Under the pieces are notes generated by a model. That model worked only from the letters and a program-made list of their open reading frames with translations, had not been told where the DNA came from and searched no databases. From Acidimicrobiia bacterium (GTDB lineage Bacteria > Actinomycetota > Acidimicrobiia > Acidimicrobiales > Aldehydirespiratoraceae): 64,000 bases of DNA. The stretch spans positions 80,967-144,966 of the forward strand of contig JAJEEV010000013.1 in NCBI GenBank assembly GCA_022820805.1, read 5' to 3'. This document shows positions 3 through 18,984 of this stretch, piece by piece. The position numbers were made by a program, and so were the translations under genes. Each line of letters starts with the position of its first letter. The stretch's first letter is position 1.

Positions 3-3000
3 CGGCTGTCACAGTCCTACGCGCTGATGACGCTGGAACGCCTGGGCTGGCAGCGCACCGAGGGCGAGTCGGTGGAGCCGGATGGGCTGCGCGAGCAGCT
101 CGGCGTGCTGCCCGAGCACAGTCGCCTGTTCCGCCGGCTCTTCGAGATGCTGGCCCGAGCGGGCGTGGTCGAAGCCTCCGATGACGGGTTCGTCGTCAGG
201 CCCCGTCCCGAGGATCACAGCCCGCCGACGCTGCCCGCGGACGCCGAGGCGTTCGGGTCGGATATGGCGGACCGCTACGAGCACGGCTCGACCGAGATCG
301 GGCTGTTCCGGCGCAGCGCCGAAGCCCTGAGCGAGGTTCTGGTGGGCGATGCCGATCCGTTGACGCTGCTGTTCAGCAGCGGCGAGCCCACCGCGGCCGA
401 CCTGTACCTGAAGGCACCGGTGGCCAGGGCGGCCAACCAGATGCTGGCCGACGCGGTGGCAACCCTGCTCGAACAGATGCCCGACGGGCGCAGGCTGCGG
501 GTGATCGAGGTCGGGGCAGGCACGGGGTCGGCCACGGCCGCGGTGCTGCCCCAACTGCCCGAGGGTCGCTTCGACTACACCTACACCGATATCTCCGCTG
601 GCTTCTTCGCCGAGGCCGAGGGCCGTTTCGGCGGGCGTGCGGCGTCGATCGAGTACCGGGTGCTCGACATAGAGCAGGACCCGGGCTCCCAGGGCTTCGA
701 CTACCACGCCTACGACCTGGTGATCGCGTCCAACGTGCTGCACGCCACCCGCTACCTGTCCGAGACACTCGAGCACTGCCGGGATCTCCTGGCGCCGTCG
801 GGTCATGTGGTGGCTCTGGAGAACCTGAGAGGGCAGGGCTGGCTGGACCTGACCTTCGGGCAGCTGGACGGCTGGTGGCGCTTCGCCGACTCCTGCCGCC
901 CCCACCATGCCCTGGCCAGTCCCGCGGTCTGGCGGCAGGCACTCGACGACGCCGGCTTCGAGGGGGTCGAGGTCCTGGGCGCCGATGAAGCCGATCCTGA
1001 CGTCGAGCCCGACCGGGGCGTGATCCTGGCCCAGGGTCCGGCCGACGTGACCGAACGGCCCGGAGCGTGGGTCCTGGCCGCGGGCCGGGGCGGCCTGGCC
1101 GCCGAACTGGCCGAGAGGCTGGCGGCCCTCAACCAGACAGTGGTGCTGGCCAGCGGCGAGTCGTCTCCCGACACGGGCTCGGTGCCCGACGGAGTTGCTG
1201 CCGCGGTGATCGACATGGAGAGCCGGACCGAATGGCTCGAACTCCTCGGGACCCTCCCGCCCGGCCTCCCCCTGAACGGGGTCGTGCATCTCGCCGCGAC
1301 CGACGCCCACGGGGCGGGGGCCACCACCGAGCAGATGGCGACCGCAGTGAGGCGGGCCGGCGCCAGCGCGCTGGCGCTGGTGCAGGGCCTGGCCGACGCC
1401 GACGCGACCCCGACCAAGGGCGTGTGGTTCGTCACCCGTGGAGGCCAGGTGCTGGACCACGAGTCCGTCGAGGGCGTGGCCGGCGCGGTGCTGTGGGGCC
1501 TCGGGAAGGTCACAGCCCGCGAGGCCTCCCATCTCCAGCCGAGGATGATCGATCTGGACCCGGCCGCCGCGGAGCTGCCGCCCGACATACAGGACGAGTT
1601 CCTGCATCCCGATTCTGAGACTCACATCGCCTACCGCGTGGGACGCCGCCAAGCAGCCCGGCTGGTCCGGTTCGGCGCCGACGCCGGCGGCGCCGAACGG
1701 CTGAAGCTGCCCGAGCCGGCCGGCGAGACACCCTGGCTGCTCGAGCCCGACGAGGGCGGCGCGCTGGACGGACTGCGTGTGGAGACCGTCCCGGCCCGAC
1801 CGCTGGAACCGGGCGAGGTGCGGGTGGCGGTCGAGGCCACCGGACTCAACTTTTGGGACATGTTCCGATCCCTCGGCGTTATCGACGAGGGCCTGCTGGG
1901 AGGCGAGTTCTGCGGGCGGGTGCTGGAGGCCGGGCCGGGCGTGAGCACAGTCCAGGAGGGAGACCGGGTGGTCGGCCTCGCCTTCGGCACCTTCTCGGCG
2001 GAGGCGGTGATGCGCGAGGAAATGGTGGCACCGGCCCCACCTCACATCGGTGTCACCGCGCTGGCGACCATGCCGACCGCGTTCGTGTCGGCCGCCCTGT
2101 CGTTCGATCTCGCGGAGCTGAAGGCGGGCGACCAGGTGCTCATCCACGCGGCCGCCGGCGGCGTCGGCCTGGCTGCCGTCCAACTGGCCCAGGCCGCCGG
2201 AGCCGAGGTGTTCGCCACCGCCAGCGCTCCGAAGCAGGCCTACCTGCGCTCACTGGGCGTAGAGCACATCTTCGACAGCCGATCGACGGCCTTCGGCGAG
2301 CAGATCCTCGAAGCCACCGGCGGTGAAGGCGTCGATGTGGTGCTCAACAGCCTCACCGGACCAGGCTTCATCGACGCCAGCCTGTCGTGCCTGGCCCGCG
2401 GGGGCCGGTTCGTGGAACTGGCCAGGGTCGACATCCTGAGCCACGACGAGATGTCACAAGGCCGGCCCGACGTGGGCTACTGGATCCTGGAACTGGACGT
2501 CCTGAAGGAGCACGACCCCGCCCGGCCGGGCGACGCCCTCAGGCGGGTGATGCACCGCCTGGCCGCCGGCGAGTTGGCCCCGCTGGTGCACACCAGGTGG
2601 TCGCTGGCCGAGGCCGGTGCAGGCATGGAGTTCATGCGGGCCGCCCGCCACATCGGCAAGATCGTCTTCGCGGCCTCCCCGCTGGAGACAGGGCGGCTGC
2701 GCGGCGACCGGACCTACCTGGTCACTGGAGGCCTGGGCGGGATCGGCTGCACGGTGGCCGGATGGCTGTTCGATCGAGGCGCCGGTGCCATAGTGCTCAA
2801 CGGCCGGCGCGACCCGGACCCCGAAGCCGCCGAGGCCATCGCCGAGCTGCGCGAGCGGGGCGCGACGGTGAGCGTCGAGTTGGCCGACATCACCGACGCT
2901 GGCGCCGTGGACGCCATGCTGGCCCGAGTCTCCGACTCCCTGCCGCCGCTCGCGGGCGTCATCCACAGCGTGGGGGTGCTGTCCGACGCGGCCCTGACCA

Positions 3001-5333
3001 ACCAGAGCTGGGAGAGTTTCGAGAGGGTGCTGTGGCCCAAGGTGCTCGGGGCCTGGCACCTGCACCGGGCGACCGAGGACCGTGACCTCGACATGTTCGT
3101 GCTGTTCTCCAGCGTGGCCGGCGTGCTGGGCAACCCGGGCCAGGCCAACCACGCCGCGGCCAACGCGTTCCTCGACGTGCTCGCAGCCCACCGGCGTTCG
3201 CTGGGATTGGCAGGGCAGTCGATCGCGTGGGGGGCATGGTCGGGGCTGGGCGAGGCCGAGGAGCAGCGCGAGCGGATAGCCGCGCAGCTCGAGGCCGCGG
3301 GCACGGGCTGGATCACCCCCCAGCACGGCATGCGAGCCTTCGACCATCTCGTCCGCCAGGACACGACCGCGCCCATGGTGGCCGCGGTGGACTGGCAGAC
3401 GGTGGCCGACGATCACGAGAGCCGTTCGCCCCTGCTGGAGGACCTGCTGGCCGCGGTGGCCGGCCAGGCCGAAGGCCGCCAGGACTCACAGGCCGACCTG
3501 CTGGCCGAGTTGGGGGCATCGCCCGCGACGGAGCACGAACAGATCCTGGCCGGATTCCTGCAGCGAGAACTGCAGGCGGTGATGCGCCTGCCGGACCTTC
3601 CGGCTCCCTCCGTCGAGTTCGCCGACCTGGGAATGGACTCCCTGATGGCGGTGGAGTTGAGGAACCGCGTCAACCGCGGCTTCGCGGGCGCGTACACCGC
3701 CGGCAACACCGTGGTCTTCGACTACCCGAGCGTCCAGAGCCTCGCGGCCTACCTGGCAGCGGAGCTGGCCGAGTCGGGCGGCATCGAAGCGCCCGACGGC
3801 ACGGGGGAAGGACGCTTCGCCATCCAGGCCCCCGCCGCCACGGGCGGCACCGAGGCGGTCCAGGAGGCTGTTCAGCCGGAGAAGGTCCAGCCGGACCAGG
3901 ATCAACGGGACCAGCAGCAAGCAGACGTGCCGGAGCGTCCGGCACCGAAGGCGGTCGCACCCGTCATGCCGTCTAGTCCAACCGCCAACGACGGGATCGC
4001 CATCGTCGGGATGGCCTGCCGGTTCCCCGGCGCGCCCGACCTGGACAGCTTCTGGCGCATGCTGGAGGCGGGCAAGAACGCAGTAACGGACGGGCGGCCG
4101 GATCCGGGTCCCTGGAACGGCGCGTTCGGGGACCCGGCCAACCGGGATGCCAGCAGCCGAGTCGGTGCCTACGTGGAGGGCATCGACCGGTTCGATGCGG
4201 GCTTCTTCCGGATCAGACCGATCGAGGCCCGCATGATGGACCCGCAGCAGCGCATGCTGCTGGAGACGACCTGGCACGCCCTCGAGGACGCCGACATCGA
4301 CCCCGCCGGCCTGAAGGGGAGCCGCACCGGGGTGTACGCCGGGATCGGCGGCAGCAGCGAGTACCGCAGAGTCATCGCCGCGGCCGGACGGGGCGACAGC
4401 TACTTCGGCACCACCTCGAGCGTGGCCGTCGGGAGGATCGCATTCACACTGGGACTGGCCGGGCCGGCCGTGCCCTTCGACCTGGCCTGCGCGTCGTCGC
4501 TCGTCGCCATTCACCATGCAGTCACCGCGCTCCAGCGGGACGAGGTCGACATGGCTCTGGCCGGAGGGGCGAACGCAGTCCTGTCCCCGTCGATCGCGAG
4601 GTTCCTCGAAGAGACCGGCATGCTGTCGGCCAGCGGGCAGTGCCGAGCCTTCGACGCGGGCGCCGACGGCTACGTTCGAGGCGAGGGCTGCGGCATGGTC
4701 GTGCTCAAGCGACTGGACGATGCCGCCGCCGACGGCGACCGGATCTGGGGCGTCGTGCGGGGCACGGCAGTCAACCAGAATGCAACTGGCCTGGGCCTTA
4801 CGCAACCCAACGGTCCGGCGCAGATGCAAGCGATGGAACAGGCGCTAGAGCGAGCGGCGGTGGCACCTGCAAACGTGGACTATCTGGAGGCGCACGGACC
4901 GGGGTCACCGTTGGGCGACGCGGTCGAGATGAATGCGGCCGCGACCGTCTACGGAACCGGCCGCGACCCTGAGCGGCCGCTCCTGGTCGGATCGGTCAAG
5001 ACCAACATCGGTCACCTGGAGTGCGCGTCGGCCGTCGCCGGTCTCATCAAGGCAGCGCTGGCCATGAACCGGGGAAAGATCCCCAGGCACCTGCACCTGA
5101 GCGAGCCCAGCGAGCAGATCGACTGGGAGCGAATGCCGGTTCGGGTGACGACCGAAGTGACAGACTGGCCGGCCGCTCCTGGTCGGCCCCGGTTGGCCGC
5201 GGTGAACTCGTTCGCCATCTCGGGTGCCAACGCCCACCTCGTGCTCGAGGGTGAGGCCCGACGCCGGATCTCATTGCCGGGCTATCCGTTCCAGCGCCGA
5301 CGGCACTGGGTCGAACCGCTGGGTTCCGAATAA
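3..5333 (+). CDS. Type I polyketide synthase, C-terminal part (N-terminus upstream of window): cMT - structural KR - ER - KR - ACP - terminal KS with no AT
   Basis: Track ORF 27..5333, but the frame is open back to nt 3 (RLSQSYAL precedes the first Met). Motifs in the translation: SAM-MT VIEVGAGTGSAT; ER LIHAAAGGVGLAAVQLA; KR TYLVTGGLGGIG; ACP LGMDSLMAVE (Ser codon 3639-3641). KS motifs: IAIVGMACRFPGA, DLACASS (Cys codon 4488-4490), EAHGPGSPLGD, KTNIGHLE. The protein ends SGANAHLVLEG...PGYPFQRRRHWVEPLGSE. Confidence 0.93.
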   Translation, partial: RLSQSYALMTLERLGWQRTEGESVEPDGLREQLGVLPEHSRLFRRLFEMLARAGVVEASDDGFVVRPRPEDHSPPTLPADAEAFGSDMADRYEHGSTEIGLFRRSAEALSEVLVGDADPLTLLFSSGEPTAADLYLKAPVARAANQMLADAVATLLEQMPDGRRLRVIEVGAGTGSATAAVLPQLPEGRFDYTYTDISAGFFAEAEGRFGGRAASIEYRVLDIEQDPGSQGFDYHAYDLVIASNVLHATRYLSETLEHCRDLLAPSGHVVALENLRGQGWLDLTFGQLDGWWRFADSCRPHHALASPAVWRQALDDAGFEGVEVLGADEADPDVEPDRGVILAQGPADVTERPGAWVLAAGRGGLAAELAERLAALNQTVVLASGESSPDTGSVPDGVAAAVIDMESRTEWLELLGTLPPGLPLNGVVHLAATDAHGAGATTEQMATAVRRAGASALALVQGLADADATPTKGVWFVTRGGQVLDHESVEGVAGAVLWGLGKVTAREASHLQPRMIDLDPAAAELPPDIQDEFLHPDSETHIAYRVGRRQAARLVRFGADAGGAERLKLPEPAGETPWLLEPDEGGALDGLRVETVPARPLEPGEVRVAVEATGLNFWDMFRSLGVIDEGLLGGEFCGRVLEAGPGVSTVQEGDRVVGLAFGTFSAEAVMREEMVAPAPPHIGVTALATMPTAFVSAALSFDLAELKAGDQVLIHAAAGGVGLAAVQLAQAAGAEVFATASAPKQAYLRSLGVEHIFDSRSTAFGEQILEATGGEGVDVVLNSLTGPGFIDASLSCLARGGRFVELARVDILSHDEMSQGRPDVGYWILELDVLKEHDPARPGDALRRVMHRLAAGELAPLVHTRWSLAEAGAGMEFMRAARHIGKIVFAASPLETGRLRGDRTYLVTGGLGGIGCTVAGWLFDRGAGAIVLNGRRDPDPEAAEAIAELRERGATVSVELADITDAGAVDAMLARVSDSLPPLAGVIHSVGVLSDAALTNQSWESFERVLWPKVLGAWHLHRATEDRDLDMFVLFSSVAGVLGNPGQANHAAANAFLDVLAAHRRSLGLAGQSIAWGAWSGLGEAEEQRERIAAQLEAAGTGWITPQHGMRAFDHLVRQDTTAPMVAAVDWQTVADDHESRSPLLEDLLAAVAGQAEGRQDSQADLLAELGASPATEHEQILAGFLQRELQAVMRLPDLPAPSVEFADLGMDSLMAVELRNRVNRGFAGAYTAGNTVVFDYPSVQSLAAYLAAELAESGGIEAPDGTGEGRFAIQAPAATGGTEAVQEAVQPEKVQPDQDQRDQQQADVPERPAPKAVAPVMPSSPTANDGIAIVGMACRFPGAPDLDSFWRMLEAGKNAVTDGRPDPGPWNGAFGDPANRDASSRVGAYVEGIDRFDAGFFRIRPIEARMMDPQQRMLLETTWHALEDADIDPAGLKGSRTGVYAGIGGSSEYRRVIAAAGRGDSYFGTTSSVAVGRIAFTLGLAGPAVPFDLACASSLVAIHHAVTALQRDEVDMALAGGANAVLSPSIARFLEETGMLSASGQCRAFDAGADGYVRGEGCGMVVLKRLDDAAADGDRIWGVVRGTAVNQNATGLGLTQPNGPAQMQAMEQALERAAVAPANVDYLEAHGPGSPLGDAVEMNAAATVYGTGRDPERPLLVGSVKTNIGHLECASAVAGLIKAALAMNRGKIPRHLHLSEPSEQIDWERMPVRVTTEVTDWPAAPGRPRLAAVNSFAISGANAHLVLEGEARRRISLPGYPFQRRRHWVEPLGSE

Positions 5334-5414
5334 TCGCGCCAGTCTTGCCGCACCCCCGGGGACACGGTAGGCTTCGCTGGCCACCAACCACTGATCAACC
5401 AAAGGACACCTGCA

Positions 5415-5660
5415 ATGTCATCTACCGAAGACCGCCTACGCGCCCTCGTGGACTCCAGCCTTGAGATCGAGGGCCGGTCGCAAGGCCAGCCGCTGACTCC
5501 GGACCTCAACATCCTCGATGCGGGCGTCAACTCGACGGATGTGGTGGCGTTCTGGAGACTCGTCTGCGAGGAGTTCGGCATCGAGATTCCGGCCGAGGAG
5601 TTCGCCGAGCTCATGACGACGGGCGATCTGATCGCATACATCGACGCCCGGAGCGGCTGA
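5415..5660 (+). CDS. Discrete acyl carrier protein (phosphopantetheine-binding)
   Basis: 81-aa ORF with an AAAGGA Shine-Dalgarno just upstream. Acidic carrier-protein-like sequence with LDAGVNSTDVV at the usual GxDS attachment site. It lies between a PKS ending in a KS and a PPTase. Confidence 0.72.
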   Translation: MSSTEDRLRALVDSSLEIEGRSQGQPLTPDLNILDAGVNSTDVVAFWRLVCEEFGIEIPAEEFAELMTTGDLIAYIDARSG

Positions 5661-5732
5661 GTTCTCCGGATCGGACAGGCGCCCAGCTCCTGGATACCGA
5701 ACTGCGAGGGCCCGGCAGGGGCCGCTGCCACT

Positions 5733-6443
5733 GTGTCTGCTGGTATGGAGGCCAAGTGGTGGCAGCCGTTCAGGCAGCTTGACGATGTCGAGGTCGTGCA
5801 TGTTGATCTGTGCCCTGACGCGCCCAGAGAGCAGCGCGCCCGGACCTGGCTCGACGATGAGGAGCGCCAGCGAGCGGACCGCTTCCAGCATGAGGGGGCC
5901 AGGCGCCGGTACGTGCTGTGCCGCGCGGCGCTGCGCTCGCTGCTGATTAGCGCGCTCGACTGCCGCAACCAGCAACTCGCCTTCAAGGCGGCCGAGCACG
6001 GAAAGCCCTTCGCAACTGTCGACGGCCAACCGGCGCTGGTCAGCTTCAACGTCAGCCACAGCGGCCGGCACGGCTTGATCGCGCTGACTTGCCGGGGACG
6101 GGTTGGCGTGGATGTCGAGGAGCGGGTGCCGCAGCGCAATCTCGACCTTCTGGTCGGGGCCGTTCTCAGCCCCGAGGAGCGGGCCGAGGTGACCGCCGCC
6201 CGAGGACGCCGTCAGCTCCATCTGTTCCTCGATCTGTGGACGATGAAGGAGGCGCTCAGCAAGGCCCACGGCGAGGGCCTCTCCATGGACGTGGCCGCCT
6301 TCGAGATTCCCCGCCATCTGCGCAACGGCGCCAGGGGCGGGGAGTTCCGGTTCGCAGACGCCCTCGACGCCGCCTGGTGGCTGGAGAACATCGGCACGGA
6401 CCGCTTCGCGGCCGCGGTGGCCCACGAGAGGGACAGACGATGA
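5733..6443 (+). CDS. Sfp-type 4'-phosphopantetheinyl transferase
   Basis: Motifs FNVSHSGRHGLIAL, VGVDVEE and WTMKEALSKAHGEG are typical of group II PPTases. The track start at 5733 is GTG; the ATG at 5745 is an alternative. Confidence 0.85.
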   Translation: MSAGMEAKWWQPFRQLDDVEVVHVDLCPDAPREQRARTWLDDEERQRADRFQHEGARRRYVLCRAALRSLLISALDCRNQQLAFKAAEHGKPFATVDGQPALVSFNVSHSGRHGLIALTCRGRVGVDVEERVPQRNLDLLVGAVLSPEERAEVTAARGRRQLHLFLDLWTMKEALSKAHGEGLSMDVAAFEIPRHLRNGARGGEFRFADALDAAWWLENIGTDRFAAAVAHERDRR

Positions 6444-7369
6444 CCTCCGCCCTGCCCATGCGGGCCGTGACCGATGCCGAGACGGAGGCGTTCCACCGCG
6501 ACGGTGCGGTGCTGCTGCGCGGTGTGCTAGCGGCCGAATGGGTCGAACTGGTGGCCGACGGCCTGGAGGAGTGCTTCACCGAACGCGACCACATGTCCAG
6601 CGAGGTGGTGGCCCAGGGAGCGACCGTGAGGGCCGACCAGTTGCTTGCGGCCCGGTCGGCCAGCCTCCACCGTTTCGCCAACGATTCGCCCGTCGGCGGT
6701 CTCGTGGGCTCGGTCGTGGGCGGCCCGGTGCGCTTCTACATGGACCAGATGTTCTTCCGCCGGGCGGGCGTGATGGCCCCCACTCCCTGGCACCAGGACA
6801 TCAGCTACCACAACGTGGAGGGCACGGACCTGGTACGAGCCTGGACGTCACCCGATCCGGTACCCCGCTCCGCCAGCCTCGAGGTGGTCCGTGGCTCTCA
6901 CCGATGGAACGTCACCTACCGGCCGATGGTGGGTCTCGACCCCGACATGTCCGATGAGGAGAACGCATTGCGGATGGCGCTGGCCCGCAAGCGCGGCGTC
7001 TACGAGAAGGGCGGCGAGGAGTTCGCCTATCGCAGGGTCGTGATGGACAAGTCGTTGCCGGCCACGCCCGACGTGCCCCGCGACCGGGACTCCTTCGACA
7101 TCATGGGATGGGACTACGAGCCCGGTGACGTGATCCTGTTCCACGGGAACCTTCTCCACGGCACAGCCGAGGGCGTGACCCTGCACCGCGACCGGCGGGC
7201 GTATGCCGCCCTGTTCGCCGGTCCGAACGCGCGTTACGTCAAGCGCGTCGGTCAGATGGTCCCGGATCCTCCCGGCCTGGCCGACCACGAACCGCAGACT
7301 GGCCAGACCCTCGACAGCTTCGGTGACGTGTTCCCCCTGGTTTGGGCGCCGGAAGACTGCTTGCGATAG
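6440..7369 (+). CDS. Phytanoyl-CoA dioxygenase (PhyH) family Fe(II)/2-oxoglutarate oxygenase
   Basis: The in-frame ATG at 6440 overlaps the PPTase stop (ATGA at 6440-6443). The 5' part of track ORF 6089..7369 is Arg/Gly-rich out-of-context translation. It has a WHQDISY HxD triad and a distal His in NLLHGT. Confidence 0.8.
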   Translation: MTSALPMRAVTDAETEAFHRDGAVLLRGVLAAEWVELVADGLEECFTERDHMSSEVVAQGATVRADQLLAARSASLHRFANDSPVGGLVGSVVGGPVRFYMDQMFFRRAGVMAPTPWHQDISYHNVEGTDLVRAWTSPDPVPRSASLEVVRGSHRWNVTYRPMVGLDPDMSDEENALRMALARKRGVYEKGGEEFAYRRVVMDKSLPATPDVPRDRDSFDIMGWDYEPGDVILFHGNLLHGTAEGVTLHRDRRAYAALFAGPNARYVKRVGQMVPDPPGLADHEPQTGQTLDSFGDVFPLVWAPEDCLR

Positions 7370-7412: not shown

Positions 7413-8741
7413 ATGAAAATTAAGGACATGATCGTGGATGATCGGGAGAGGGGTGCATTCAGAGTCCACCGATCGTCCATGACTTCCCCCGACCTGTTCC
7501 GCCTGGAACAGCAACAGATCCTCGACCGGTGCTGGCTCTATGTCGGACACGAGTCGGAGGTGGAGAAGCCCGGAGACTACCGGCGGCGCACCATAGCCGG
7601 TCGTCCGCTCTTCATGATCCGCGGCCGCGACGACCAGGTGCGGGTCCTCCTCAATTCATGCACGCACCGGGGCGCAATGATCTGCCGCCGCGACGCCGGC
7701 AACTCCCGTGTGTTCCAGTGCTTCTATCACGCCTGGACCTTCGACACGGCTGGAAACCTGGTCGGCGTTCCCGGCGACGATGCCTACAGCTCTGACTTCG
7801 ATCGCGCCGCCCTGGGGCTCAAGTCACCGCCCAGGGTGGACAACTACCGGGGCTTCTACTTCGTGAGCTTCAATCCTGATGTGGAGGATCTGGTTACCTA
7901 CCTGGCGGGGGCAAGGGAGTACATCGATCTGGTCCTGGATCAATCAGCCGAGGGCATGCGGGTGATGCCGGGCTCAGACAAGTTCACCGTGAAGGCCAAC
8001 TGGAAGATCGTGGTTGAGAACAGTCTCGACACATACCACGTCAACCCGATGCACCGGACGTACCTCCAATTCCTCGCCAGCTTCGGCACCGACGACAGCG
8101 GGCAGAGCATCGGGGACCGCATTCCCGGTTACGGGAAGGCTTTGGGCAACGGTCACGGAGTGGTTGAAGTCGCGGCGCGAGGGGGACGCCCCGCCGGCCG
8201 ATGGCACCCGATATACGGCGAGGATCTCAGGGATCCGATAGCGAGTCGCCGTCAGCGGTTAGTGGAGAAGCACGGCGAGAGCCGTGCCCACAGGATTGCA
8301 GACACCTACCGGCTGTTGCTGGTCTACCCCAACCTGGTAATCAACGACATCATGGCCACCGTCATCAAGTGCTACGAGCCTCTCGCGGTTGACCGCGTGG
8401 AGAGCTACCACTGGCACCTCGTCGCCAAGGATGAACCTCGGGAGATCCGGTCCATCCGGATGGACTCGTTCTTGACATTCTTCGGACCGGGGGGATTCGC
8501 CACTCCCGATGATGTGGAGGCCTTGGAATCCTGTCAGGCAGGGTTTCGAGCCACCGGGACCGAATGGTCCGATATCTCCAGAGGGATGCTGAGGCCTGTT
8601 CCCCTGGGCACAGATGAACTGCAACTACGCGGATTCTGGCGTCAATGGCACGCGAATGTTCAAGGTCTGAGCGAGACGAACGTACAGGATGGAGTGGCCA
8701 CGGAAGGCGAGATCCCGACGTCGCTGCGTACGGGCCGATGA
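7413..8741 (+). CDS. Rieske non-haem iron ring-hydroxylating oxygenase, alpha subunit
   Basis: Rieske CxH...CxxH motif: CTHRGAMICRR...CFYHAWTF. Mononuclear-iron region ENSLDTYHVNPMHRTY. Preceded by an AT-rich stretch (7372-7412). Confidence 0.9.
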   Translation: MKIKDMIVDDRERGAFRVHRSSMTSPDLFRLEQQQILDRCWLYVGHESEVEKPGDYRRRTIAGRPLFMIRGRDDQVRVLLNSCTHRGAMICRRDAGNSRVFQCFYHAWTFDTAGNLVGVPGDDAYSSDFDRAALGLKSPPRVDNYRGFYFVSFNPDVEDLVTYLAGAREYIDLVLDQSAEGMRVMPGSDKFTVKANWKIVVENSLDTYHVNPMHRTYLQFLASFGTDDSGQSIGDRIPGYGKALGNGHGVVEVAARGGRPAGRWHPIYGEDLRDPIASRRQRLVEKHGESRAHRIADTYRLLLVYPNLVINDIMATVIKCYEPLAVDRVESYHWHLVAKDEPREIRSIRMDSFLTFFGPGGFATPDDVEALESCQAGFRATGTEWSDISRGMLRPVPLGTDELQLRGFWRQWHANVQGLSETNVQDGVATEGEIPTSLRTGR

Positions 8742-8767
8742 TGCTCTCGTTCCTGATCGGGTGAGCG

Positions 8768-9262
8768 ATGGCGGCCGCGGACAAACCGTCATTGCGTGAA
8801 CTGGTAGAAGACTTCCTATTCAGGGAAGCTGCCCTTCTGGATGAATGGCGACTTGACGACTGGAGTGAACTCTTCACCGAGGATGCCCGCTACGTAGTTC
8901 CCACCACCGATCTGCCCGAAGGGGATCCCGAGCACGACCTGGTGTTCGTCAATGACGACATGACCCGTTTGCGCGGCCGGGTAAAGCGGCTCAAGAGCCG
9001 GTTTGCTCATCGAGAGTACCCCTCGTCTCGCACTCGCCGGTTCGTCTCCAATGTCCGGGTTGCAGAAACCGACGACGGTGCGGTCTCGGTCGAGTCGAAC
9101 GTTCTGGTGTATCGGTTCCGAAGCGGCGAGGCCGCGCCTTACGTCGGAAGCATCGCGTATGTCCTGCGCTGGGTCGACGGGGACCTGAAGATCGCCCACC
9201 GCCGAGCCGTGCTGGACCTGGAAGACCTGTCCTGGCACGGCGCTCTCAGCATCATCTTCTAG
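8768..9262 (+). CDS. Ring-hydroxylating oxygenase beta subunit (NTF2/SnoaL-like fold)
   Basis: 164 aa directly downstream of the alpha subunit. N-terminal FLFREAALLDEWRLDDWSELFTEDARYVVP is typical of small subunits. Confidence 0.8.
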   Translation: MAAADKPSLRELVEDFLFREAALLDEWRLDDWSELFTEDARYVVPTTDLPEGDPEHDLVFVNDDMTRLRGRVKRLKSRFAHREYPSSRTRRFVSNVRVAETDDGAVSVESNVLVYRFRSGEAAPYVGSIAYVLRWVDGDLKIAHRRAVLDLEDLSWHGALSIIF

Positions 9263-9295
9263 CGCGCCGGCCGCCGGTCTGGCTACGTTGCGGGG

Positions 9296-10888
9296 GTGGT
9301 CGACAATTGGCCGGTCACCGGCGGCGCAACCGAGATCCCCGAGGGGGTGCTGGCTGCGGCGGCCGCCGGCCAGGCAACGCTTCGCGACAAGCTCGAGGCG
9401 CTGCGCTCGCTGAGCGAGCCGTTCCCCGAGACCGTTGGACCCGCGGCCGGGGACCGTTGGATATCTGACGCCGAGCCACAAGTGGTCGCATCCGGCGCGA
9501 CACCAGCAGCGGATGCGTCACAGGGAGAGGCACCAGGCCGGGCCGGCGATGACCTGGCCGACCTGAGCGCGGCGGCGCTGCTGGAGGGCTACCGGACCGG
9601 GGCGTTCGACCCGATGGAGGTGGTCGACGCCTGCCTGGCCCGGATCGACGGCACCGACGGCGCCATCGGCGCGGTCGTGACCCTCGACCCGACCGCCCGC
9701 CGGCAGGCGGCCCGCTCGACTGAGCGGTGGCACGAAGGAGACGCCGGGCCGCTCGAAGGCGTCCCCGTCGGGGTGAAGGACATCATCGACACCCGCGGGC
9801 TGGCCACCGAGGCCGGGTCGACGCTGTTCGCCGGCAATGTCCCCGCCGCCGATGCCACCGTGGTGGCCCGGCTCCGGGACGCCGGCGCGGTGATCCTGGC
9901 CAAGACCACCACCCCGGAGTTCGCCTTCGGCGACGAGTCCGGCGACGGCGTGGCCAACCCGGGCGCGCCGGGCCGGTGGGCGGGCGGGAGCTCGTCGGGA
10001 TCGGCCGCAGGCCTGGCCGCCGGGCTGTTCCCGGTGGCGCTCGGCAGCGACACCGGCGGATCCATCCGGGTGCCCTCGTCGTACTGCGGTGTGAGCGGGA
10101 TCAAGCCCACGTTCGGGCGGGTGCCCCGCGACGGCGTCTTCGGCGTGTCCTGGACGCTGGACCATGTCGGCCCCATGGCCCGGACGGTCAAGGACCTGGG
10201 TCTGGTGCTGGGCGTCATCGCGGGCGGATGCGACGCCGATCCGTACGCGTCTGGGTGGCCGGTCCCCGACTACGGCCGGACGGCCGGGTCGATCCGGGGG
10301 ACACGCGTCGGCGTGGTCGACGGATGGCTGGCCGAGGGCTCCACCCCGGGCGTGGACGCGGCCCTGGCCGATGCGCTATCGCAGCTGGAAGAGCTCGGCT
10401 GCACCGTCGAGCCGGTGCCGTTCGGCTCCGCCGAACTGGCCGGGATCGTCGCCTGGGTCATCACCGTGGTGGAGTTCGCGGCCCACCACGCCGGCAACAT
10501 GGACCGCATCGGCGAGTTCACCCCCTCGGCGGCCTGCCGGCTGGCGGCCGGCGCCCGCACGAGCGCCTCCGACTACCTGAAGGCGCTGCGGGCCCGGGCT
10601 CTGGTGCAACAGGACCTCGACGCAGCGTTCGAGAAGGTCGACGTGCTGGTCACCGCGGCCACGCCCACCTCGGCCCCCGATCCGGCCACCTTCTTCGACG
10701 ACGGCGACCGGCTGTGGCTCGACAAGGTGGCCCGGACGTTCCTGCCGTTCAACGTGACCGGCCAGCCCGCGCTGGTGCTGCCGGTCGGTCTCGACGAGGA
10801 CCGTCCCGCCGCGGTCCAGGTCGTCGCCCCGCCCCACGCCGACGCCCTGTGCCTGCGGATCGGCACCGCCCTCCAGGGAGCATGCTGA
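9296..10888 (+). CDS. Amidase-signature family amidase (GatA-like)
   Basis: Amidase signature GGSSSGSAAGLAAG, catalytic-Lys region VGVKDIIDTRG, and GSDTGGSIRVPSSYCG. The first ~85 aa of the track ORF have no amidase-like character, so the true start may be downstream. Confidence 0.86.
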   Translation: MVDNWPVTGGATEIPEGVLAAAAAGQATLRDKLEALRSLSEPFPETVGPAAGDRWISDAEPQVVASGATPAADASQGEAPGRAGDDLADLSAAALLEGYRTGAFDPMEVVDACLARIDGTDGAIGAVVTLDPTARRQAARSTERWHEGDAGPLEGVPVGVKDIIDTRGLATEAGSTLFAGNVPAADATVVARLRDAGAVILAKTTTPEFAFGDESGDGVANPGAPGRWAGGSSSGSAAGLAAGLFPVALGSDTGGSIRVPSSYCGVSGIKPTFGRVPRDGVFGVSWTLDHVGPMARTVKDLGLVLGVIAGGCDADPYASGWPVPDYGRTAGSIRGTRVGVVDGWLAEGSTPGVDAALADALSQLEELGCTVEPVPFGSAELAGIVAWVITVVEFAAHHAGNMDRIGEFTPSAACRLAAGARTSASDYLKALRARALVQQDLDAAFEKVDVLVTAATPTSAPDPATFFDDGDRLWLDKVARTFLPFNVTGQPALVLPVGLDEDRPAAVQVVAPPHADALCLRIGTALQGAC

Positions 10889-10950
10889 TCGACAGCAGCA
10901 CGAACCAGACCCGATAGCGGTGATTCTCCAGTATTTTTCATTGATTGATG

Positions 10951-10978
10951 TTGCATCACAGGAACAGCCTGCTACGAT
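10951..10978 (+). promoter_or_regulatory. Candidate sigma-70/SigA-type promoter (-35 TTGCAT, 16-nt spacer, -10 TACGAT)
   Basis: Read directly in an AT-rich island (10921-10980) inside GC-rich DNA. TTGCAT at 10951-10956 and TACGAT at 10973-10978, about 38 nt upstream of the ATG at 11016. Confidence 0.3.
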
Positions 10979-11015
10979 CGCTGCCGTCACGACCGGGCCC
11001 GGAAGGAATGGCGCC

Positions 11016-11216
11016 ATGGAAGCTGCAGGAGTGCCATCGTCCGCCGTCCCGACAGACACGCTGGCCACCACCAAGGACTTGCAGGTTCTCGAGTCGAGAC
11101 TGATCGCCGAACTCCACAAGGAGATCGCAGAGTTGACCAGGACGATGATGAGGGTCGCGTTGATGATGGTCGCCGCTTTCGCGGGAGCGCTGGTCACCGT
11201 CGCGCTCGTCGTGTGA
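11016..11216 (+). CDS. Small coiled-coil protein with C-terminal transmembrane anchor (hypothetical)
   Basis: The ATG at 11016 is in frame with track ORF 10920..11216 and preceded by GGAAGGA. Sequence KDLQVLESRLIAELHKEIAELTRTMM is followed by the hydrophobic tail VALMMVAAFAGALVTVALVV. Confidence 0.5.
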   Translation: MEAAGVPSSAVPTDTLATTKDLQVLESRLIAELHKEIAELTRTMMRVALMMVAAFAGALVTVALVV

Positions 11217-11257
11217 GCAGCGTTCGCAGGAGCCGTGGAGTCGAGAGGAGCAACGCC

Positions 11258-11617
11258 ATGGGAGCGACCCACGTCACCGTCACCGTCCGCAACCCCGCCG
11301 ACCGGGACCGGTCGTGGGAGGGCCTGTTCCTCGTCGACACCGGTACGACCGACAGCCTGGTGCCGCGGCAGCACCTTGAAGCGATCGGTCTGGAACCCCG
11401 AGGCAGCCGCACCTACGAACTGGCTGACGGCAGCGCCGTCCGGTTCGATGTCGCCGGCGCGGACATCGAGTTCATGGGCGAGTACGTCGCGACGACCGTG
11501 CTCTTCGGCGACGACGACACCGAGCCCCTGCTGGGAGTCACTGCGCTGGAGTCGGTTGGCATAGAGGTGGACCCGCGGAACCAGCAACTGAAGCGACGGC
11601 CCGCCGTGCGGCTCTAA
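11258..11617 (+). CDS. Retropepsin-like (clan AA) aspartyl protease family protein
   Basis: ATG at 11258 preceded by GAGAGGAG. DTG active-site motif in LFLVDTGTTDSLVP. The ~119-aa size is typical of single-lobe bacterial retropepsin-like proteins. Confidence 0.72.
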   Translation: MGATHVTVTVRNPADRDRSWEGLFLVDTGTTDSLVPRQHLEAIGLEPRGSRTYELADGSAVRFDVAGADIEFMGEYVATTVLFGDDDTEPLLGVTALESVGIEVDPRNQQLKRRPAVRL

Positions 11618-11771
11618 CTGCTCGACTGGGGTTGGCGTTGATGGCGGCGTTGGACGCGGGAACCCTCCGCAACGAGCCCCGCGCCCGATATGAGGCTGCC
11701 TGAGCCCGCCAACTAGGTTCAGCGGCGCCGGGAACCTCCCCGACGCGCGTCCTCACAGCAAGGAGCAAGCC

Positions 11772-12941
11772 ATGACGGTCCTCACCGACGATCTCCTGGC
11801 CAGCTTCGACGACTCGGTCGGTCCGGTGGACGAGGCCAGGCTGCTGCCGCCGATCCTGTACACGTCGCCGGAGTTCTACGACTTCGAGCGGCGGGCCATA
11901 TTCCAGCGGGAATGGCTCTGCGTGGGCCGGGCCGACCAGCTGAAGGAGCCCGGCGACTACCGCTGCATCACCATCGCGGGCGAGCCCCTCATCGCGGCCC
12001 GGGACGCCGACGGCGAGCTGAGGGTGATGTCGGCGGTGTGCCGGCACCGGGGAATGGTGATCGCGGAGGGTTCGGGCAACTGCCGCCGGTTCACATGCCC
12101 GTACCACCACTGGACCTACGGCCTCGACGGGACGCTGCTCGGGACCCCGGCCATGGACAGGGCCGTGGGATTCGACCGGTCCGAGCATCCGCTGCCCCAG
12201 CTCAAGGTGGAGCTGTGGCAGGGGTTCATCATGGCCAACTTCGATCACGACGCCCGCCCGTTCGGCCCCACCATGACCAAGATCGACGAGATGCTCGTCA
12301 ACTACGGGCTGGAGTCGACGGCCACGCTGGAGGGCAAGACGATCCCGGACCTTCCCTGGAACTGGAAGGTCATGATGGAGAACTTCAACGACCCCTACCA
12401 CGCCAGCCGGCTCCACGGGCCGCTGCAGACGTTCGCACCGAGCCACATGAACGACTTCCTGCCATGGGACGACGACGACGGCGCGGTCGGCCGGATCCAG
12501 CACTTCACCGACATCGACGGATCGTTCAACCCGACCAAGCGCTGCATCCTGCCGGTGTTCGCCAACCTCACCACCGAGCAGCGCAAGCGGGGCGGGTTCG
12601 TGCTCATACCCCCCACCCTGGCCCTGGCCATCGTCCCCGACGAGGTCGCCTACTTCATCATCAGCCCCCAGGGGCCCGGCCACATCACCATCAACATCGG
12701 CTACTGCTTCGAGTCCTCCGCACTGGAGGACCCCATGTTCGAGTACCTGTTCGAAGCGGCCGAGGCCGGCGTCAACAACTTCAACATGCAGGACATCTAC
12801 GCCGACGAGATGACCCAGAAGGGCCTCAACTCGCTGCTGGCTCCCCGGGGCCGCTACTCGTGGCAGGAGGAGACGCTGGTGCAGTTCAACCGCTGGCTGG
12901 TGAGGCGCTACCGCCGGCACTGGCCCTCCAACGGAGCCTGA
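11772..12941 (+). CDS. Rieske non-haem iron oxygenase, alpha-only type (substrate unknown)
   Basis: AAGGAG RBS. Rieske motif CRHRGMVIAEG...CPYHHWTY. Iron site NWKVMMENFNDPYHASRLH. No beta subunit follows. Confidence 0.9.
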   Translation: MTVLTDDLLASFDDSVGPVDEARLLPPILYTSPEFYDFERRAIFQREWLCVGRADQLKEPGDYRCITIAGEPLIAARDADGELRVMSAVCRHRGMVIAEGSGNCRRFTCPYHHWTYGLDGTLLGTPAMDRAVGFDRSEHPLPQLKVELWQGFIMANFDHDARPFGPTMTKIDEMLVNYGLESTATLEGKTIPDLPWNWKVMMENFNDPYHASRLHGPLQTFAPSHMNDFLPWDDDDGAVGRIQHFTDIDGSFNPTKRCILPVFANLTTEQRKRGGFVLIPPTLALAIVPDEVAYFIISPQGPGHITINIGYCFESSALEDPMFEYLFEAAEAGVNNFNMQDIYADEMTQKGLNSLLAPRGRYSWQEETLVQFNRWLVRRYRRHWPSNGA

Positions 12942-12973
12942 GCGCAGCCGGACGACCAGGGAGCACCCCGAGC

Positions 12974-13651
12974 ATGGACCCGGACCGCACCATCACCTTC
13001 GACCCTGGCGAGAACCAGCCCATGGACCGCCAGTTCATGCTGTCGCAGCTGGTGGTTCCCCGGCCCATCGCCATGGTCTCGACCCGCAGCCCCGACGGGG
13101 TCGCCAACATCGCTCCCATGAGCTACTACCTGCCCATAACCGGCGACCCCATGCTGCTGGGAATCACCATGGGCCTGCGCGAGGACGGGCAGCTCAAGCA
13201 CACCTACCTCAACGCCATGGCCAGCGGCGACTTCGTCGTCAACGTCACCAGCGAGGCGTTCCGCGACGACATCGAGACCGTGGCCATGGAGTGCCCGGGC
13301 AACGTCGACGAGTTCGACCTGGCGGGGTGGACCACGGTTCCGGCCACCAAGGTGAGTTCGCCCGCCATCGGGGAGGCCCTGGCCCGCCTGGAGTGCGTGG
13401 TGCACAAGGTGGTGGACCTGGGGACGCCGGACCGGGTGTTCGGGGAAGTCCACCTCGTGATCGGCGAGGTGGTGTGGGTGGCCTACGACTCGGCCATCTG
13501 CGGCCCCAATGGCCGCATCGACCCGCTGCGCCTGGGCGCGATCGCACGCCTGGGCCTGCGCACCTTCCTGCGCACCGTGGACGAGGGCGCCTATTCCCTG
13601 CAGCGCACGCCATGGGCCGACTTCGTCGCGGCCGACGGCTCGACCAGCTAG
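12974..13651 (+). CDS. Flavin reductase-like FMN-binding (split-barrel) protein
   Basis: ATG at 12974 (AGGGAG RBS) in frame with the 3' part of track ORF 11912..13651. VVPRPIAMVSTRSPDGVANIAPMSYY is the typical flavin-reductase-domain core. Confidence 0.8.
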   Translation: MDPDRTITFDPGENQPMDRQFMLSQLVVPRPIAMVSTRSPDGVANIAPMSYYLPITGDPMLLGITMGLREDGQLKHTYLNAMASGDFVVNVTSEAFRDDIETVAMECPGNVDEFDLAGWTTVPATKVSSPAIGEALARLECVVHKVVDLGTPDRVFGEVHLVIGEVVWVAYDSAICGPNGRIDPLRLGAIARLGLRTFLRTVDEGAYSLQRTPWADFVAADGSTS

Positions 13652-13717
13652 CGGTCCCCGGCGAACTAGCTGATGGCGAGGGCTGCTGGGTAGCGTCACC
13701 GTCAGGCTCGGAGAATC

Positions 13718-14712
<995 letters not shown>

Positions 14713-14716
<4 letters not shown>

Positions 14717-15756
14717 CCGCGGCCGACACCGCCGCCCCGAAGCGGGCGGCCCGCACTCCCCGCAAGGCCCGGGACCGGGTCCGCAAGGTCGCCTTCACCC
14801 GGGCCCTCAACGATGCGCTGGACCTGGCCATGTCCAAGCACGACGAGATGTTCGTCATCGGCGAGGACATCGCCGAGATGGGCGGCGACTTCGGCGTCAC
14901 CAAGGGTCTGCTGGCCAAGTACGGGCCCGAGCGGGTGCGAGACACGCCCCTGTCGGAGGCGGCCATCATCGGCACCTGCGCGGGCGCGGCCATGGTCGGC
15001 ATGCGCCCGGTGGCCGAGATCATGTTCGCCGACTTCATCGCCGAGTGCTACGACCAGGTCGTCAACAACGTGGCCAAGATGCACTACATGTTCGACGGGC
15101 AGTTCAAGGCGCCGCTGGTGATCCGCACCGCCTGCGGGGGCGGGTTCGGCGGCGGGCCGCACCACTCCCAGAGCGTGGAGGGCTGGTTCCTGAACGTGCC
15201 CGGCATCGTGATCGTGGCCCCGTCCAACCCGGTCGACGCCAAGGGCCTGCTGCTGGCATCGATCGACAGCGACGACCCGGTCCTGTTCCTGGAGCACAAG
15301 GCCCTGTACCGCAGCCGGGCCGAGGTGCCCCCCGAGTACTACACCACCCCGCTGGGGCAGGCTGCCATCGCCCGCGAGGGCAGCGACGTGACCGTGGTCG
15401 CGGCCATGCGGATGGTGCCCATGGCGCTGGAGGCCGCCGAAGAGGCCGCCGACGCCGGCGTCGCGGTGGAGGTCGTGGACCTCAGGACCATCCGGCCCTA
15501 CGACGCCGAGACGGTGCTGGCCTCGGCAGCCAAGACCGGCCGGGTGGTGGTGGCCAACGAGGCGCCCAAGATCGGCGGGCTCGGCGCCGAGCTCAGCGCT
15601 CGCATCAGCGAGGAGTGCTTCAGCGACCTGAAGGGACCGGTGGTGCGCGTCGACGGCCTCGACACCCCCATCCCCTTCTCGGTGCCCCTGGAGGACGTGG
15701 TCCTGCCCGACGCGCAGGACATCGCGGCCGCCGTCAGCACCGCAGCCCAGTACTGA
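14713..15756 (+). CDS. 2-oxoacid/acetoin dehydrogenase E1 beta subunit
   Basis: The ATG at 14713 overlaps the E1-alpha stop (ATGA). VFVIGEDIAEMGGDFGVTKGLLAKYGPERVRDTPLSEAAIIG and a C-terminal transketolase-like domain. The 5' part of track ORF 14461.. is out of context. Confidence 0.92.
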
Positions 15757-15787
15757 CCCAGAACACGAAGACCATTAGGAGGGCCAG

Positions 15788-16057
15788 ATGGCCACCGATG
15801 TGATCCTGCCCAAGTGGGGCCTGACCATGGAGGACGGCACCGTCGTCGCGTGGTATGTGGACGAGGGCGACCATGTAGTGGAGGGCGAAGTGATCGCCGA
15901 AGTGGAGACCGAGAAGGTGGAGAACGAGCTGGAAGCACCCTGCGCCGGAGTGGTGGCCCGGATACTCGTGGACGAGGATGAGACCGTCGATGTGGGCACC
16001 GTGCTGGCGGTGATCGCCGGCAACGAGGCCGAGGCCGCAGCCATCGCTGGGGGTTGA
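15788..16057 (+). CDS. Free-standing lipoyl-attachment domain protein (E2 N-terminal domain only)
   Basis: 89 aa, AGGAGGG RBS. Lipoyl-lysine context VIAEVETEKVENELEAP (Lys codon 15914-15916). The stop at 16055-16057 is immediately overlapped by the next gene. No acyltransferase core follows. Confidence 0.85.
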   Translation: MATDVILPKWGLTMEDGTVVAWYVDEGDHVVEGEVIAEVETEKVENELEAPCAGVVARILVDEDETVDVGTVLAVIAGNEAEAAAIAGG

Positions 16058-16868: not shown

Positions 16869-17828
16869 ATGATCAGCATCAACCGTGAAGCCATGAAGAC
16901 GGTGCGGCTCATCCTGGATGAGGCCGACGCACTGGGCGTGACCGTCGACCGGCTCGACAACGGCAGCACCGTCATCGACATGGGCCTGCACGCCAAGGGA
17001 GGCTGGCGGGCCGCCCAGCTCTACACCCTGGCCAGCCTGGGCGGGCTCGGCACCGTGAGCTACGAGCCCTTCGAGCTGGCTGGACGGATGCTCACCGCGG
17101 TGCGGGTGATGATCGATCACCCCATCGAGGGCTGCGTGGCGTCGCAGATCGCAGGATGGCGCCTGCAAGCCCCCGGCACCGAGCACGCCGCCATCCTCGC
17201 CGGGCCGGGCCGGGCCCTGAACCGCGACAGCCTGGACCACTACTTCGAGTGGATCGACTACCGCGACGAGCATCACGAGGCGGTGGTGGCCATCCAGACC
17301 TCCGAGCCGGTCCCGGTGGAGATGGCCGACATGATCGCGTCGTCGTGCCGGATCGATCCCGGCGACCTCTACGTGCTGTTCGCCCCCAACCGCAGCCTGG
17401 TGACCGCGGTGCAGGTGGCGGCCCGGATCGTGGAGCAGTCCCTGCACCGGCTGGCCGAGGAGGGCATGGACCTGCGGGGACTGCGCTACGCGTACGGCCT
17501 GGGCGTGGTGCCGCCGCTGGTGGACGACGACCTGGTCTCGATGGGCCGCATCAACGACAGCCTCCTGTACGGGGGGATCTCCAACGTCACCGTGGACGGC
17601 GACGACGCCCAGTGCGCGGAGATCGTGGAGCGGGTGGTGTCGGTGGCCTGCGAGGCCTACGGCCGCCCGTTCATCGAGATCTACGAGGACGCCGGGCGGG
17701 ACTTCTACGAGATTCCCATTGAGCTGCACTCCCCGGCCGAGATCCACCTCACCAACCTGGCCAGCGGAAACACCTTCAGCGCCGGACACATCAACCACGA
17801 GGTGCTGACCGCCTCATTCTTCAGCTAA
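16869..17828 (+). CDS. mch: Methenyltetrahydromethanopterin cyclohydrolase (Mch) family protein
   Basis: AGGAG RBS. End-to-end resemblance to remembered archaeal/methylotroph Mch. The N-terminus ISINREAMKTVRLILDEADALGVTVDRLDNGSTVIDMG matches the pattern VSVN.EA...V..MIE.A.EL...V..L.NG.TVID.G. The C-terminus matches as well: GRPFIEIYEDAGRDFYEIP...NLASGNTFSAG.IN.E.L. ~320 aa, as for Mch. Confidence 0.82.
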   Translation: MISINREAMKTVRLILDEADALGVTVDRLDNGSTVIDMGLHAKGGWRAAQLYTLASLGGLGTVSYEPFELAGRMLTAVRVMIDHPIEGCVASQIAGWRLQAPGTEHAAILAGPGRALNRDSLDHYFEWIDYRDEHHEAVVAIQTSEPVPVEMADMIASSCRIDPGDLYVLFAPNRSLVTAVQVAARIVEQSLHRLAEEGMDLRGLRYAYGLGVVPPLVDDDLVSMGRINDSLLYGGISNVTVDGDDAQCAEIVERVVSVACEAYGRPFIEIYEDAGRDFYEIPIELHSPAEIHLTNLASGNTFSAGHINHEVLTASFFS

Positions 17829-17857
17829 TGGTTGAGGATGCATTCAAAAGCATTGTG

Positions 17858-17886
17858 TTGCATTGAACTGTGTCACAGCTTAGGGT
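17858..17886 (+). promoter_or_regulatory. Candidate promoter (-35 TTGCAT, 17-nt spacer, -10 TAGGGT) driving a possibly leaderless small gene
   Basis: TTGCAT at 17858-17863 and TAGGGT at 17881-17886. The GTG at 17893 lies 7 nt after the -10. It sits in an AT-rich island containing GCATT at 17840, 17850 and 17860 (exact 10-bp phasing). Confidence 0.3.
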
Positions 17887-17892
17887 GGGGGC

Positions 17893-18231
17893 GTGGCAGC
17901 ACCGGAAGCGCTCAGCGTCCCAGGCGACAGCACCGCTGCCGGGCCGGAGGTCGTCGTGCGGGCCGCTTCGCAACGGATGCCGCAGCTCATCCCCATCGCC
18001 CAGTTGGTCGCCGTCGTGCTCGGAGTGTTCGCCATCATCTGGCACCAGCAACAGACCACCGACAATCTGCGCACCGAGCTGATGGCCGAGATTGGTGGCG
18101 TCGAGACCGGGCTGGGCGCCGAGATCACCTCACTGCGGGCTGAGGTGGCCGAGAACGGGCAGCGGCTGGCCCGCATCGAGGGGTTCCTCGGGATCGGGGT
18201 CCCCGACGTTTCGCCACCATCGAATCCGTGA
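17893..18231 (+). CDS. Small membrane-anchored coiled-coil protein (hypothetical)
   Basis: Track ORF. Hydrophobic segment LIPIAQLVAVVLGVFAIIW followed by LRTELMAEIGGVETGLGAEITSLRAEVAENGQRLARIEGFLG. Its stop overlaps the next gene's start (GTGA). The alternative start is the ATG at 17977. Confidence 0.5.
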   Translation: MAAPEALSVPGDSTAAGPEVVVRAASQRMPQLIPIAQLVAVVLGVFAIIWHQQQTTDNLRTELMAEIGGVETGLGAEITSLRAEVAENGQRLARIEGFLGIGVPDVSPPSNP

Positions 18232-18950: not shown

Positions 18951-18984
18951 GCACACCGAGCGACCTGCCGGCGGTGACACTGCC

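Follow-up and report, generated by a model that had tools for sequence, protein, structure and literature searches.

A probable Sup-type polyketide synthase of an uncultivated sponge symbiont with a split and eroded second module

The Sup (sponge symbiont ubiquitous polyketide synthase, PKS) clusters, with genes supA-E, were reportedly described by Fieseler et al. in 2007 (AEM) and Hochmuth et al. in 2010. According to published descriptions, they encode small, monomodular PKSs that are ubiquitous in and specific to high-microbial-abundance sponges and are absent from MIBiG. They have been proposed to make mid-chain methyl-branched fatty acids, and their product is still uncharacterised. The clusters are spread over Chloroflexota, Proteobacteria and others (PMC9426513), and SupE is a permease (PMC3908369). 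The window analysed here, a 64,000-nucleotide stretch of contig JAJEEV010000013.1 (assembly GCA_022820805.1, positions 80,967 to 144,966), opens inside the PKS gene of a cluster that is probably of the Sup type, having been matched to Sup by those descriptions. The host, an Acidimicrobiia bacterium, stands near Candidatus Aldehydirespirator, and the cluster belongs to uncultivated sponge symbionts. By origin the synthase has two modules: the first is complete, while the second is split and eroded, consisting of a terminal ketosynthase (KS2) and a free-standing acyl carrier protein (ACP2).

The likeness to Sup extends to habitat and size, and may extend to gene neighbourhood. Clusters of this kind occur in sponge symbionts, here across Acidimicrobiia, Chloroflexota and Gammaproteobacteria; the PKS is unusually small, with one full module that carries a C-methyltransferase (cMT) and a full reductive loop; and a permease, possibly a counterpart of SupE, stands next to the cluster in related loci. 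In L007, L008 and some 30 further loci this permease, of 580 aa and the NCS2 type, lies beside the cluster, the window's own contig having been read only as far as the hydrolase. Unlike in Sup, the terminal ketosynthase of this lineage has lost the KS-AT linker domain (LD) as well as the acyltransferase (AT), and a PhyH-like dioxygenase has joined the cluster. The assignment stays indirect. No protein bearing a Sup name was present among the matches of the ACP search, the cluster members or the permease search from a Chloroflexi locus, and the domain order of SupA is not given in the sponge-PKS literature examined, which did not include the original Sup description. SupA itself presumably closes with an additional KS, and genes for an ACP, a phosphopantetheinyl transferase (PPTase) and a hydrolase would lie beside it.

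Position 1 of the window falls within the PKS gene, the frame of which is open from base 3 to a stop codon at 5331-5333. The complete gene is found on a second contig, L001, which differs from the window by 1 base in the 15,000 overlapping bases compared and extends farther upstream. There (L001 704-9919) the PKS is a protein of 3071 aa with the order KS1-LD-AT-DH-cMT-ER-KR-ACP1-KS2, where DH, ER and KR are the dehydratase, enoylreductase and ketoreductase, and no loading domain precedes KS1 at the N-terminus. The order of module 1, KS-AT-DH-(cMT)-ER-KR-ACP, is also that of mycocerosic acid synthase (MAS)-like and highly reducing iterative PKSs, which, however, have neither an appended second KS nor a dedicated free-standing ACP. 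The acyltransferase of module 1 (AT1), in the same polypeptide as KS2, is intact, with GHSLGE and PAYHS motifs. An earlier note on this DNA, made from the window's letters, had reported neither an AT nor a release domain; both absences hold within the window, but not upstream of its position 1, where AT1 is encoded and an alpha/beta-hydrolase gene (Abhydrolase_6), a candidate for the release enzyme, lies directly 5' of the PKS on L001. That note had itself named an AT immediately upstream in the same polypeptide as a finding that would overturn its interpretation, and the 3071-aa protein proved to contain an intact one. The post-AT tail of module 1, GEARRRVALRGYRFQHHRYW, is nearly the same as the tail of KS2, and module 2 and the KS-AT core of module 1 are therefore paralogues; the LD and dead AT that follow KS2 in relatives likewise match LD1 and AT1. 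As for the start of the gene, the ATG called as such (L001 613-763 region) cuts into a conserved IAVVGMACRFPG motif. The frame is open 5' of this ATG (...RSPIAVVGMACRF) as far as the final part of the hydrolase gene, so that translation probably begins farther upstream, at a TTG or GTG that overlaps that gene.

KS2 contains the full Cys/His/Lys/His set of a condensation-competent ketosynthase. The Cys codon (TGC, 4488-4490) lies in DLACASS, the first His (4893-4895) in EAHGPGS, where the usual HGTGT context is changed to HGPGS, and the Lys (4998-5000) and second His (5013-5015) in SVKTNIGHLE; checking of the codon positions bore out the intact Cys and both His motifs that had been noted earlier. 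The domain closes with SGANAHLVLEG at 5220-5252, and only 8 residues (EARRRISL) separate it from PGYPFQRRRHW at 5277-5309. The earlier note had recognised this motif correctly but had begun it at 5283, which is the position of its Tyr, and had put the gap at about ten residues. In phmmer searches of PDB sequences, the tail aligned to the post-AT linker of the didomain protein CurL (...IPTYPFQRESYW) and of DEBS module 5 (2HG4; ...LPVYPFQRQRYW), in both of which the matching segment is the end of that linker, roughly 450 residues past the KS. Given this distance, both the LD and the AT are missing from module 2, and the alignment upholds the earlier view that the motif is a post-AT linker with LD and AT cleanly removed. 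The canonical cis-AT layout, with KS, LD, AT, post-AT linker and ACP in one polypeptide, is not found in module 2, the ACP of which is a separate gene.

The best sequence and fold matches of KS2 are cis-AT KS-AT didomains (DEBS module 5, 2HG4; CurL, 4MZ0). In these didomains the motif of the post-AT linker packs on the KS; it aligns with the KS2 tail, although the approximately 450 residues (LD and AT) lying between KS and motif are missing here. In the phmmer searches KS2 scored 415 bits against CurL, 374 against DEBS and about 270 against trans-AT ketosynthases, and it also strongly matched the structures of MAS and Pks13; a Foldseek search with KS2 returned KS domains only. The trans-AT ketosynthases of the bacillaene synthase (PksJ/PksL, PDB 4NA1 and 5ERF) resemble KS2 in having no AT, in ending in a YPF..W motif, in an extender unit loaded in trans relative to the module, and in fold (TM 0.84). 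Unlike KS2, they keep a linker (flanking) subdomain, and they are less similar to it in sequence than are the cis-AT enzymes; trans-AT PKSs also differ from this system in its cis AT in module 1 and in the dead cis AT in module 2 of relatives.

These comparisons bear directly on the suggestion of the earlier note that module 2, which it rightly saw as split into a KS and an ACP without an AT of its own (the KS2 stop is indeed followed by free-standing ACP2), needs a trans-acting acyltransferase. A module truly of the trans-AT kind, relying on its own free-standing enzyme encoded elsewhere in the genome, would fit the missing AT and the discrete ACP, and the AT searches covered the window and the flanks of the related loci rather than whole genomes. 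With KS2 nearer to cis-AT than to trans-AT ketosynthases, a dead cis AT still in place in relatives and an intact AT in the same protein, such a module is nonetheless very unlikely. Nor does the cluster have a conserved AT gene in its surroundings: the 64-kb window contains no free-standing AT, and tblastn with AT1 (E <= 1e-5), which a distant FabD-like AT could escape, detected none in the flanks of 70 related loci.

Those 70 loci were obtained by an ACP-alignment scan with one genome per species. Nearly all are from metagenome-assembled genomes of sponge symbionts, belonging to Acidimicrobiia (including Ca. Poriferisocius and Ca. Aldehydirespirator), Dehalococcoidia/Chloroflexi and, in two cases, Gammaproteobacteria. 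Domain maps made with tblastn show a conserved cluster of (permease), (hydrolase), PKS, ACP2, PPTase and (hydrolase), which in the Chloroflexi loci is ordered ACP2-PPTase-hydrolase-permease-PKS. The PKS stop and the separate gene for the ACP, a protein of 80 aa in these clusters, are conserved in about 70 genomes, and no frameshift restoring a KS-AT continuation, a possibility raised earlier, was found.

The relatives form a graded series. KS2 homologues at 86-90% identity (among non-frameshifted ends), and others down to about 60%, consist of KS2, an LD of about 150 aa, the tail and the stop, with no AT. Remoter homologues retain a shortened AT between LD and tail, and in every one of these the catalytic Ser has been lost, the GHSxG motif having become GHGAG, GQGVG, GCGPG, GYGVG, GYGLA or similar. 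The distance from the end of KS2 to YPFQ could be scored in 53 loci (species representatives), with the window counted apart. It is 144-218 aa in 49 of the 53, which have the LD only; 364-389 aa in two, which retain a dead AT; and 11-12 aa in the remaining two (L029 and L031), which, like the window, are LD-less. Because relatives keep a dead AT in cis after KS2, the AT-less state is the outcome of decay of a cis-AT module. In the KS2 tree, the window and L029 are sisters with 100% bootstrap and have a common junction, whereas the junction of L031 is different (EG followed by SETRRPTSPPGYSFQ) and L031 nests at 97% among LD-bearing lineages. The different junction and placement of L031 show that the LD was lost at least twice independently, by deletions that preserved both the reading frame and the tail.

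The deletion itself can be placed to the codon. In comparison with L007, 147 aa have been lost in frame between ..LVLEG and ..FEG, the latter followed by ETRRR, with the same Glu-Gly codon pair at both edges, and the junction sits between the Gly codon at 5250-5252 and the Glu codon at 5253-5255. An exact ACP look-up yielded six assemblies (two from ENA, one NCBI genome, GCA_022822485.1, and three Logan runs) from different samples, in which the end LVLEG-E(A/T)RRRISLPGYPFQRRRHW is identical but for the Ala/Thr polymorphism, the full C-terminus reading ...NAHLVLEG-E(A/T)RRRISLPGYPFQRRRHWVEPLGSE and then the stop. Contigs from two sponge-metagenome runs span 4900-5700 without a gap and with the junction contiguous, and the window sequence is carried by many runs, mainly sponge metagenomes. 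Because the same end recurs in six assemblies and is contiguous in these two further runs, the junction is real and no assembly artefact. An assembly or frameshift artefact, or a non-functional relic on its way to becoming a pseudogene, might have been suspected from the rarity of the LD-less form (two of the 53 scorable species representatives, plus the window) and from the many database relatives broken by frameshifts, probably in noisy long-read assemblies. This idea is largely refuted, and scarcely credible any longer, in view of the recurrent junction, a deletion that is in frame and keeps both the conserved tail and the stop, a dN/dS of 0.16-0.17 among LD-less lineages, and the transcription of ACP2, within or overlapping the gene of which a metatranscriptome contig spans 5481-5700.

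Selection on KS2 can be gauged more generally. Its dN/dS is 0.11-0.17, the values between LD-less lineages included, compared with 0.06-0.11 for KS1, 0.13-0.36 for ACP2 and 0.24-0.44 for the PPTase; KS2 is under purifying selection. Among 120 relatives the Cys, the Lys and the second His are conserved throughout, a single frameshift-damaged fragment (P0092) excepted, and the first His is conserved in all but three (P0034, P0075 and P0083), which have Gln or Asn instead. The tail, for its part, corresponds to a portion of the post-AT linker, LPTY(A/P)FQ(H/R)xRYWL, that binds the KS surface and is critical for condensation (PMC10423236). A KS2 that still condenses is favoured because the full catalytic set is present, purifying selection acts on it and the tail was kept through two independent deletions.

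Several observations weigh against a condensing KS2. The HGTGT motif, strict in KS1-type domains, is relaxed throughout the KS2 clade to HG(P/A/V/S/I)(G/A)(S/T), and this, with the loss of the first His in three of the 120 relatives, hints that decarboxylative condensation is not strictly required everywhere. Since the LD contacts the ACP during elongation in cis-AT PKSs (PMC10423236), its loss sits oddly with an elongating KS2. An AF2 model of KS2 and tail, with a well-predicted core (pLDDT >90, pTM 0.90), left the tail undocked (pLDDT ~40); because the tail of an LD-bearing homologue, modelled as a control, was likewise undocked, AF2 modelling is uninformative on tail packing.

The main rival explanation takes KS2 to be a non-elongating transfer ketosynthase (KS0-like) that moves a finished chain from ACP1 to ACP2, which would deliver it to the hydrolase, the PhyH-like enzyme or lipid enzymes. 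Since neither an extender unit nor an AT would then be needed, the decay first of the AT and then of the LD would be explained, and the relaxed HGTGT and substituted first His, an AT that is dead or missing in every member examined, and the double loss of an ACP-contacting LD are all in keeping with such a role. Yet the two His and the Lys serve no purpose outside decarboxylation and condensation, and about 95% of relatives, at 55-90% identity, have retained them; the low dN/dS of KS2, the preservation of a condensation-critical, KS-binding tail by two independent in-frame deletions, and the availability of an intact AT in the same protein also speak against mere transfer, which is judged somewhat unlikely.

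The favoured account, held to be probable, is of a Sup-type PKS with its second module split between KS2 and ACP2 that still condenses, ACP2 being loaded by AT1 or FabD. Starting from the anatomy, the decay series, the junction, the purifying selection and the conservation of the cluster, all of which are observed, we infer the condensation step, the source of its extender unit and the fate of the product. Module 2 began as a cis-AT module, the AT of which first lost its catalytic Ser and shrank and was later deleted; in this lineage the 147-aa in-frame deletion also removed the LD, fusing the end of KS2 to the KS-binding motif of the post-AT linker. Module 1 would build a reduced, methyl-branched acyl chain on ACP1, and KS2 would take this chain onto Cys1496 (numbering of the window translation from base 3) and condense it once more with malonyl-ACP2. 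The malonyl group could be supplied by the only AT in the system, AT1 of the same or a partner subunit, or by housekeeping FabD. The resulting 3-oxoacyl-ACP2 may be released by the adjacent hydrolase, modified by the PhyH-like enzyme or passed to type II fatty-acid enzymes.

A bolder proposal, put forward tentatively, is that a minimal type I KS without AT and LD, but with a 20-residue KS-binding tail, still elongates with a free-standing, AcpP-like ACP. If this is true, the LD is dispensable for ACP docking during elongation, and KS2/ACP2 would serve as an adaptor between a type I PKS and free-standing (type II-like) lipid enzymes, handing on a methyl-branched intermediate; this would provide, for the mid-chain-branched fatty acids of sponges, a biosynthetic route that can be tested.

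In PKS surveys of sponge microbiomes Sup-type clusters are the dominant kind, yet neither what they make nor what their unusual second KS does has been proven. The present locus is a rare structural variant of a known cluster family, an incremental addition and no new system, but the decay series of the terminal module, and above all the LD-less KS, looks new. The series from dead AT to no AT to no LD, with the KS under selection and the tail always kept, amounts to a natural deletion experiment. It indicates what a ketosynthase requires of the KS-AT core, which could help in deciding where to set domain boundaries in PKS engineering, and it reduces the mechanistic question on Sup clusters to whether the chain on ACP2 is elongated or merely transferred. 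The features of the window that belong to the cluster are collected in Table 1.

Table 1. Features of the PKS cluster within the window.
Feature	Position	Strand	Basis
C-terminal 1776 aa of the 3071-aa type I PKS, cMT-ER-KR-ACP1-KS2-tail	3..5333	+	Translation, Pfam; KS1-LD-AT-DH upstream of window position 1
C-methyltransferase region (HTH_51 and Methyltransf_12/23)	3..1052	+	Pfam, residues 1-62 and 147-323
Enoylreductase (ADH_N, ADH_zinc_N)	1770..2672	+	Pfam, residues 603-888
Ketoreductase	2712..3242	+	Pfam KR, 214.8 bits
ACP1, canonical LGMDSL site, Ser codon 3639-3641	3558..3755	+	Pfam PP-binding and motif position
KS2, terminal ketosynthase, ends NAHLVLEG	3993..5252	+	Pfam, motif positions, PDB phmmer, alignment of relatives
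Retained post-AT-linker tail, EARRRISLPGYPFQRRRHWVEPLGSE	5253..5330	+	Aligns to CurL 918-937 and DEBS 883-900
ACP2, free-standing 81-aa carrier protein, Ser40 codon 5532-5534 in GVNST	5415..5660	+	Pfam PP-binding, 37.6 bits
Sfp/HetI-type phosphopantetheinyl transferase	5733..6443	+	Pfam ACPS and AASDHPPT_N; NCBIfam HetI-like below cut-off
PhyH-family Fe(II)/2-oxoglutarate dioxygenase, HxD motif (WHQD), start overlaps PPTase stop	6440..7369	+	Pfam PhyH

The gene that follows the PKS is, as first described, that of a small ACP with a GVNST attachment site. The view of this site as a departure from the usual motif was not sustained: because the residue before Ser40, which is invariant in the ACP2 family, varies freely (N, S, D, T, A or P), GVNST is the family norm and no aberration. 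ACP2 also weakly resembles AcpP-type ACPs, below curated cut-offs, and in most related loci the PPTase adjoins it.

A PhyH-like gene directly follows ACP2/PPTase, at 80-90% identity, in about 20 Acidimicrobiia loci (the window, L009-L018, L022, L023, L025, L027-L030, L032 and L033). Its product is probably a tailoring enzyme recruited to this cluster subtype, and it is conceivable that it hydroxylates the acyl chain, either bound to ACP2 or after release. A carrier-protein-dependent halogenase was considered and rejected, the HxD motif being present and the protein looking like a hydroxylase.

The PKS gene also shows signs of exchange between lineages. Against L028, dS is 0.08-0.09 in the cMT and KR, 0.47 in KS2 and 1.13 in ACP2, while the KS2 of the window is closest to that of L029 (dS 0.22). 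These values and the affinity to L029 suggest a recombination breakpoint just before KS2, which may have moved the LD-less allele between lineages.

Related loci vary in other ways as well. One Acidimicrobiia contig (L061, 1-13730) carries two Sup-like clusters in tandem, the second without a methyltransferase match, and three Dehalococcoidia/Chloroflexi loci (L065, L072 and L073) have no cMT match and the order ACP-PPTase-hydrolase-permease-PKS. In L031 (8810-10000) the PKS stop is separated from ACP2 by an extra open reading frame of about 390 aa, to which the PhyH-like protein of the window gave no match at E <= 1e-5. Many database homologues are 450-800 aa long and end in out-of-frame, Arg-rich tails (P0003, P0004, P0008, P0076 and others), and look like PKS genes split by long-read assembly indels, not stand-alone KS proteins; the matches listed are all of 800 aa or less, and the window's own protein is not among them.

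Beyond the cluster, positions 7413-16057 of the window, which lead up to C1 genes, encode a Rieske oxygenase (alpha and beta), an amidase, a second Rieske alpha with a flavin reductase, E1-alpha, E1-beta and a stand-alone 92-aa lipoyl protein without an E2 catalytic domain. Since part of this block shares synteny with L007, but not with distant loci, its role is probably a catabolic one, outside the PKS cluster. Loading of ACP2 with an unusual unit by the products of its E1-alpha, E1-beta and lipoyl genes, in the manner of quinocarcin-type glycolyl-ACP pathways, was considered and rejected, since only in close relatives do these genes, the Rieske oxygenases and the amidase accompany the cluster, and they sit among methylated-amine and C1 catabolic genes. 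The latter, a methylated-amine/C1 metabolism block at 51336-63999 and 16869-19995, include an ammonium transporter, a DUF1989+GCV_T protein (Tdm-like), an FMO-like monooxygenase (Tmm-like), a two-subunit CoA ligase and an HpcH-type lyase (malyl-CoA-like), a class V aminotransferase, the N-terminus of a malate synthase, a methenyl-H4MPT cyclohydrolase (MCH) and a luciferase-like oxidoreductase.

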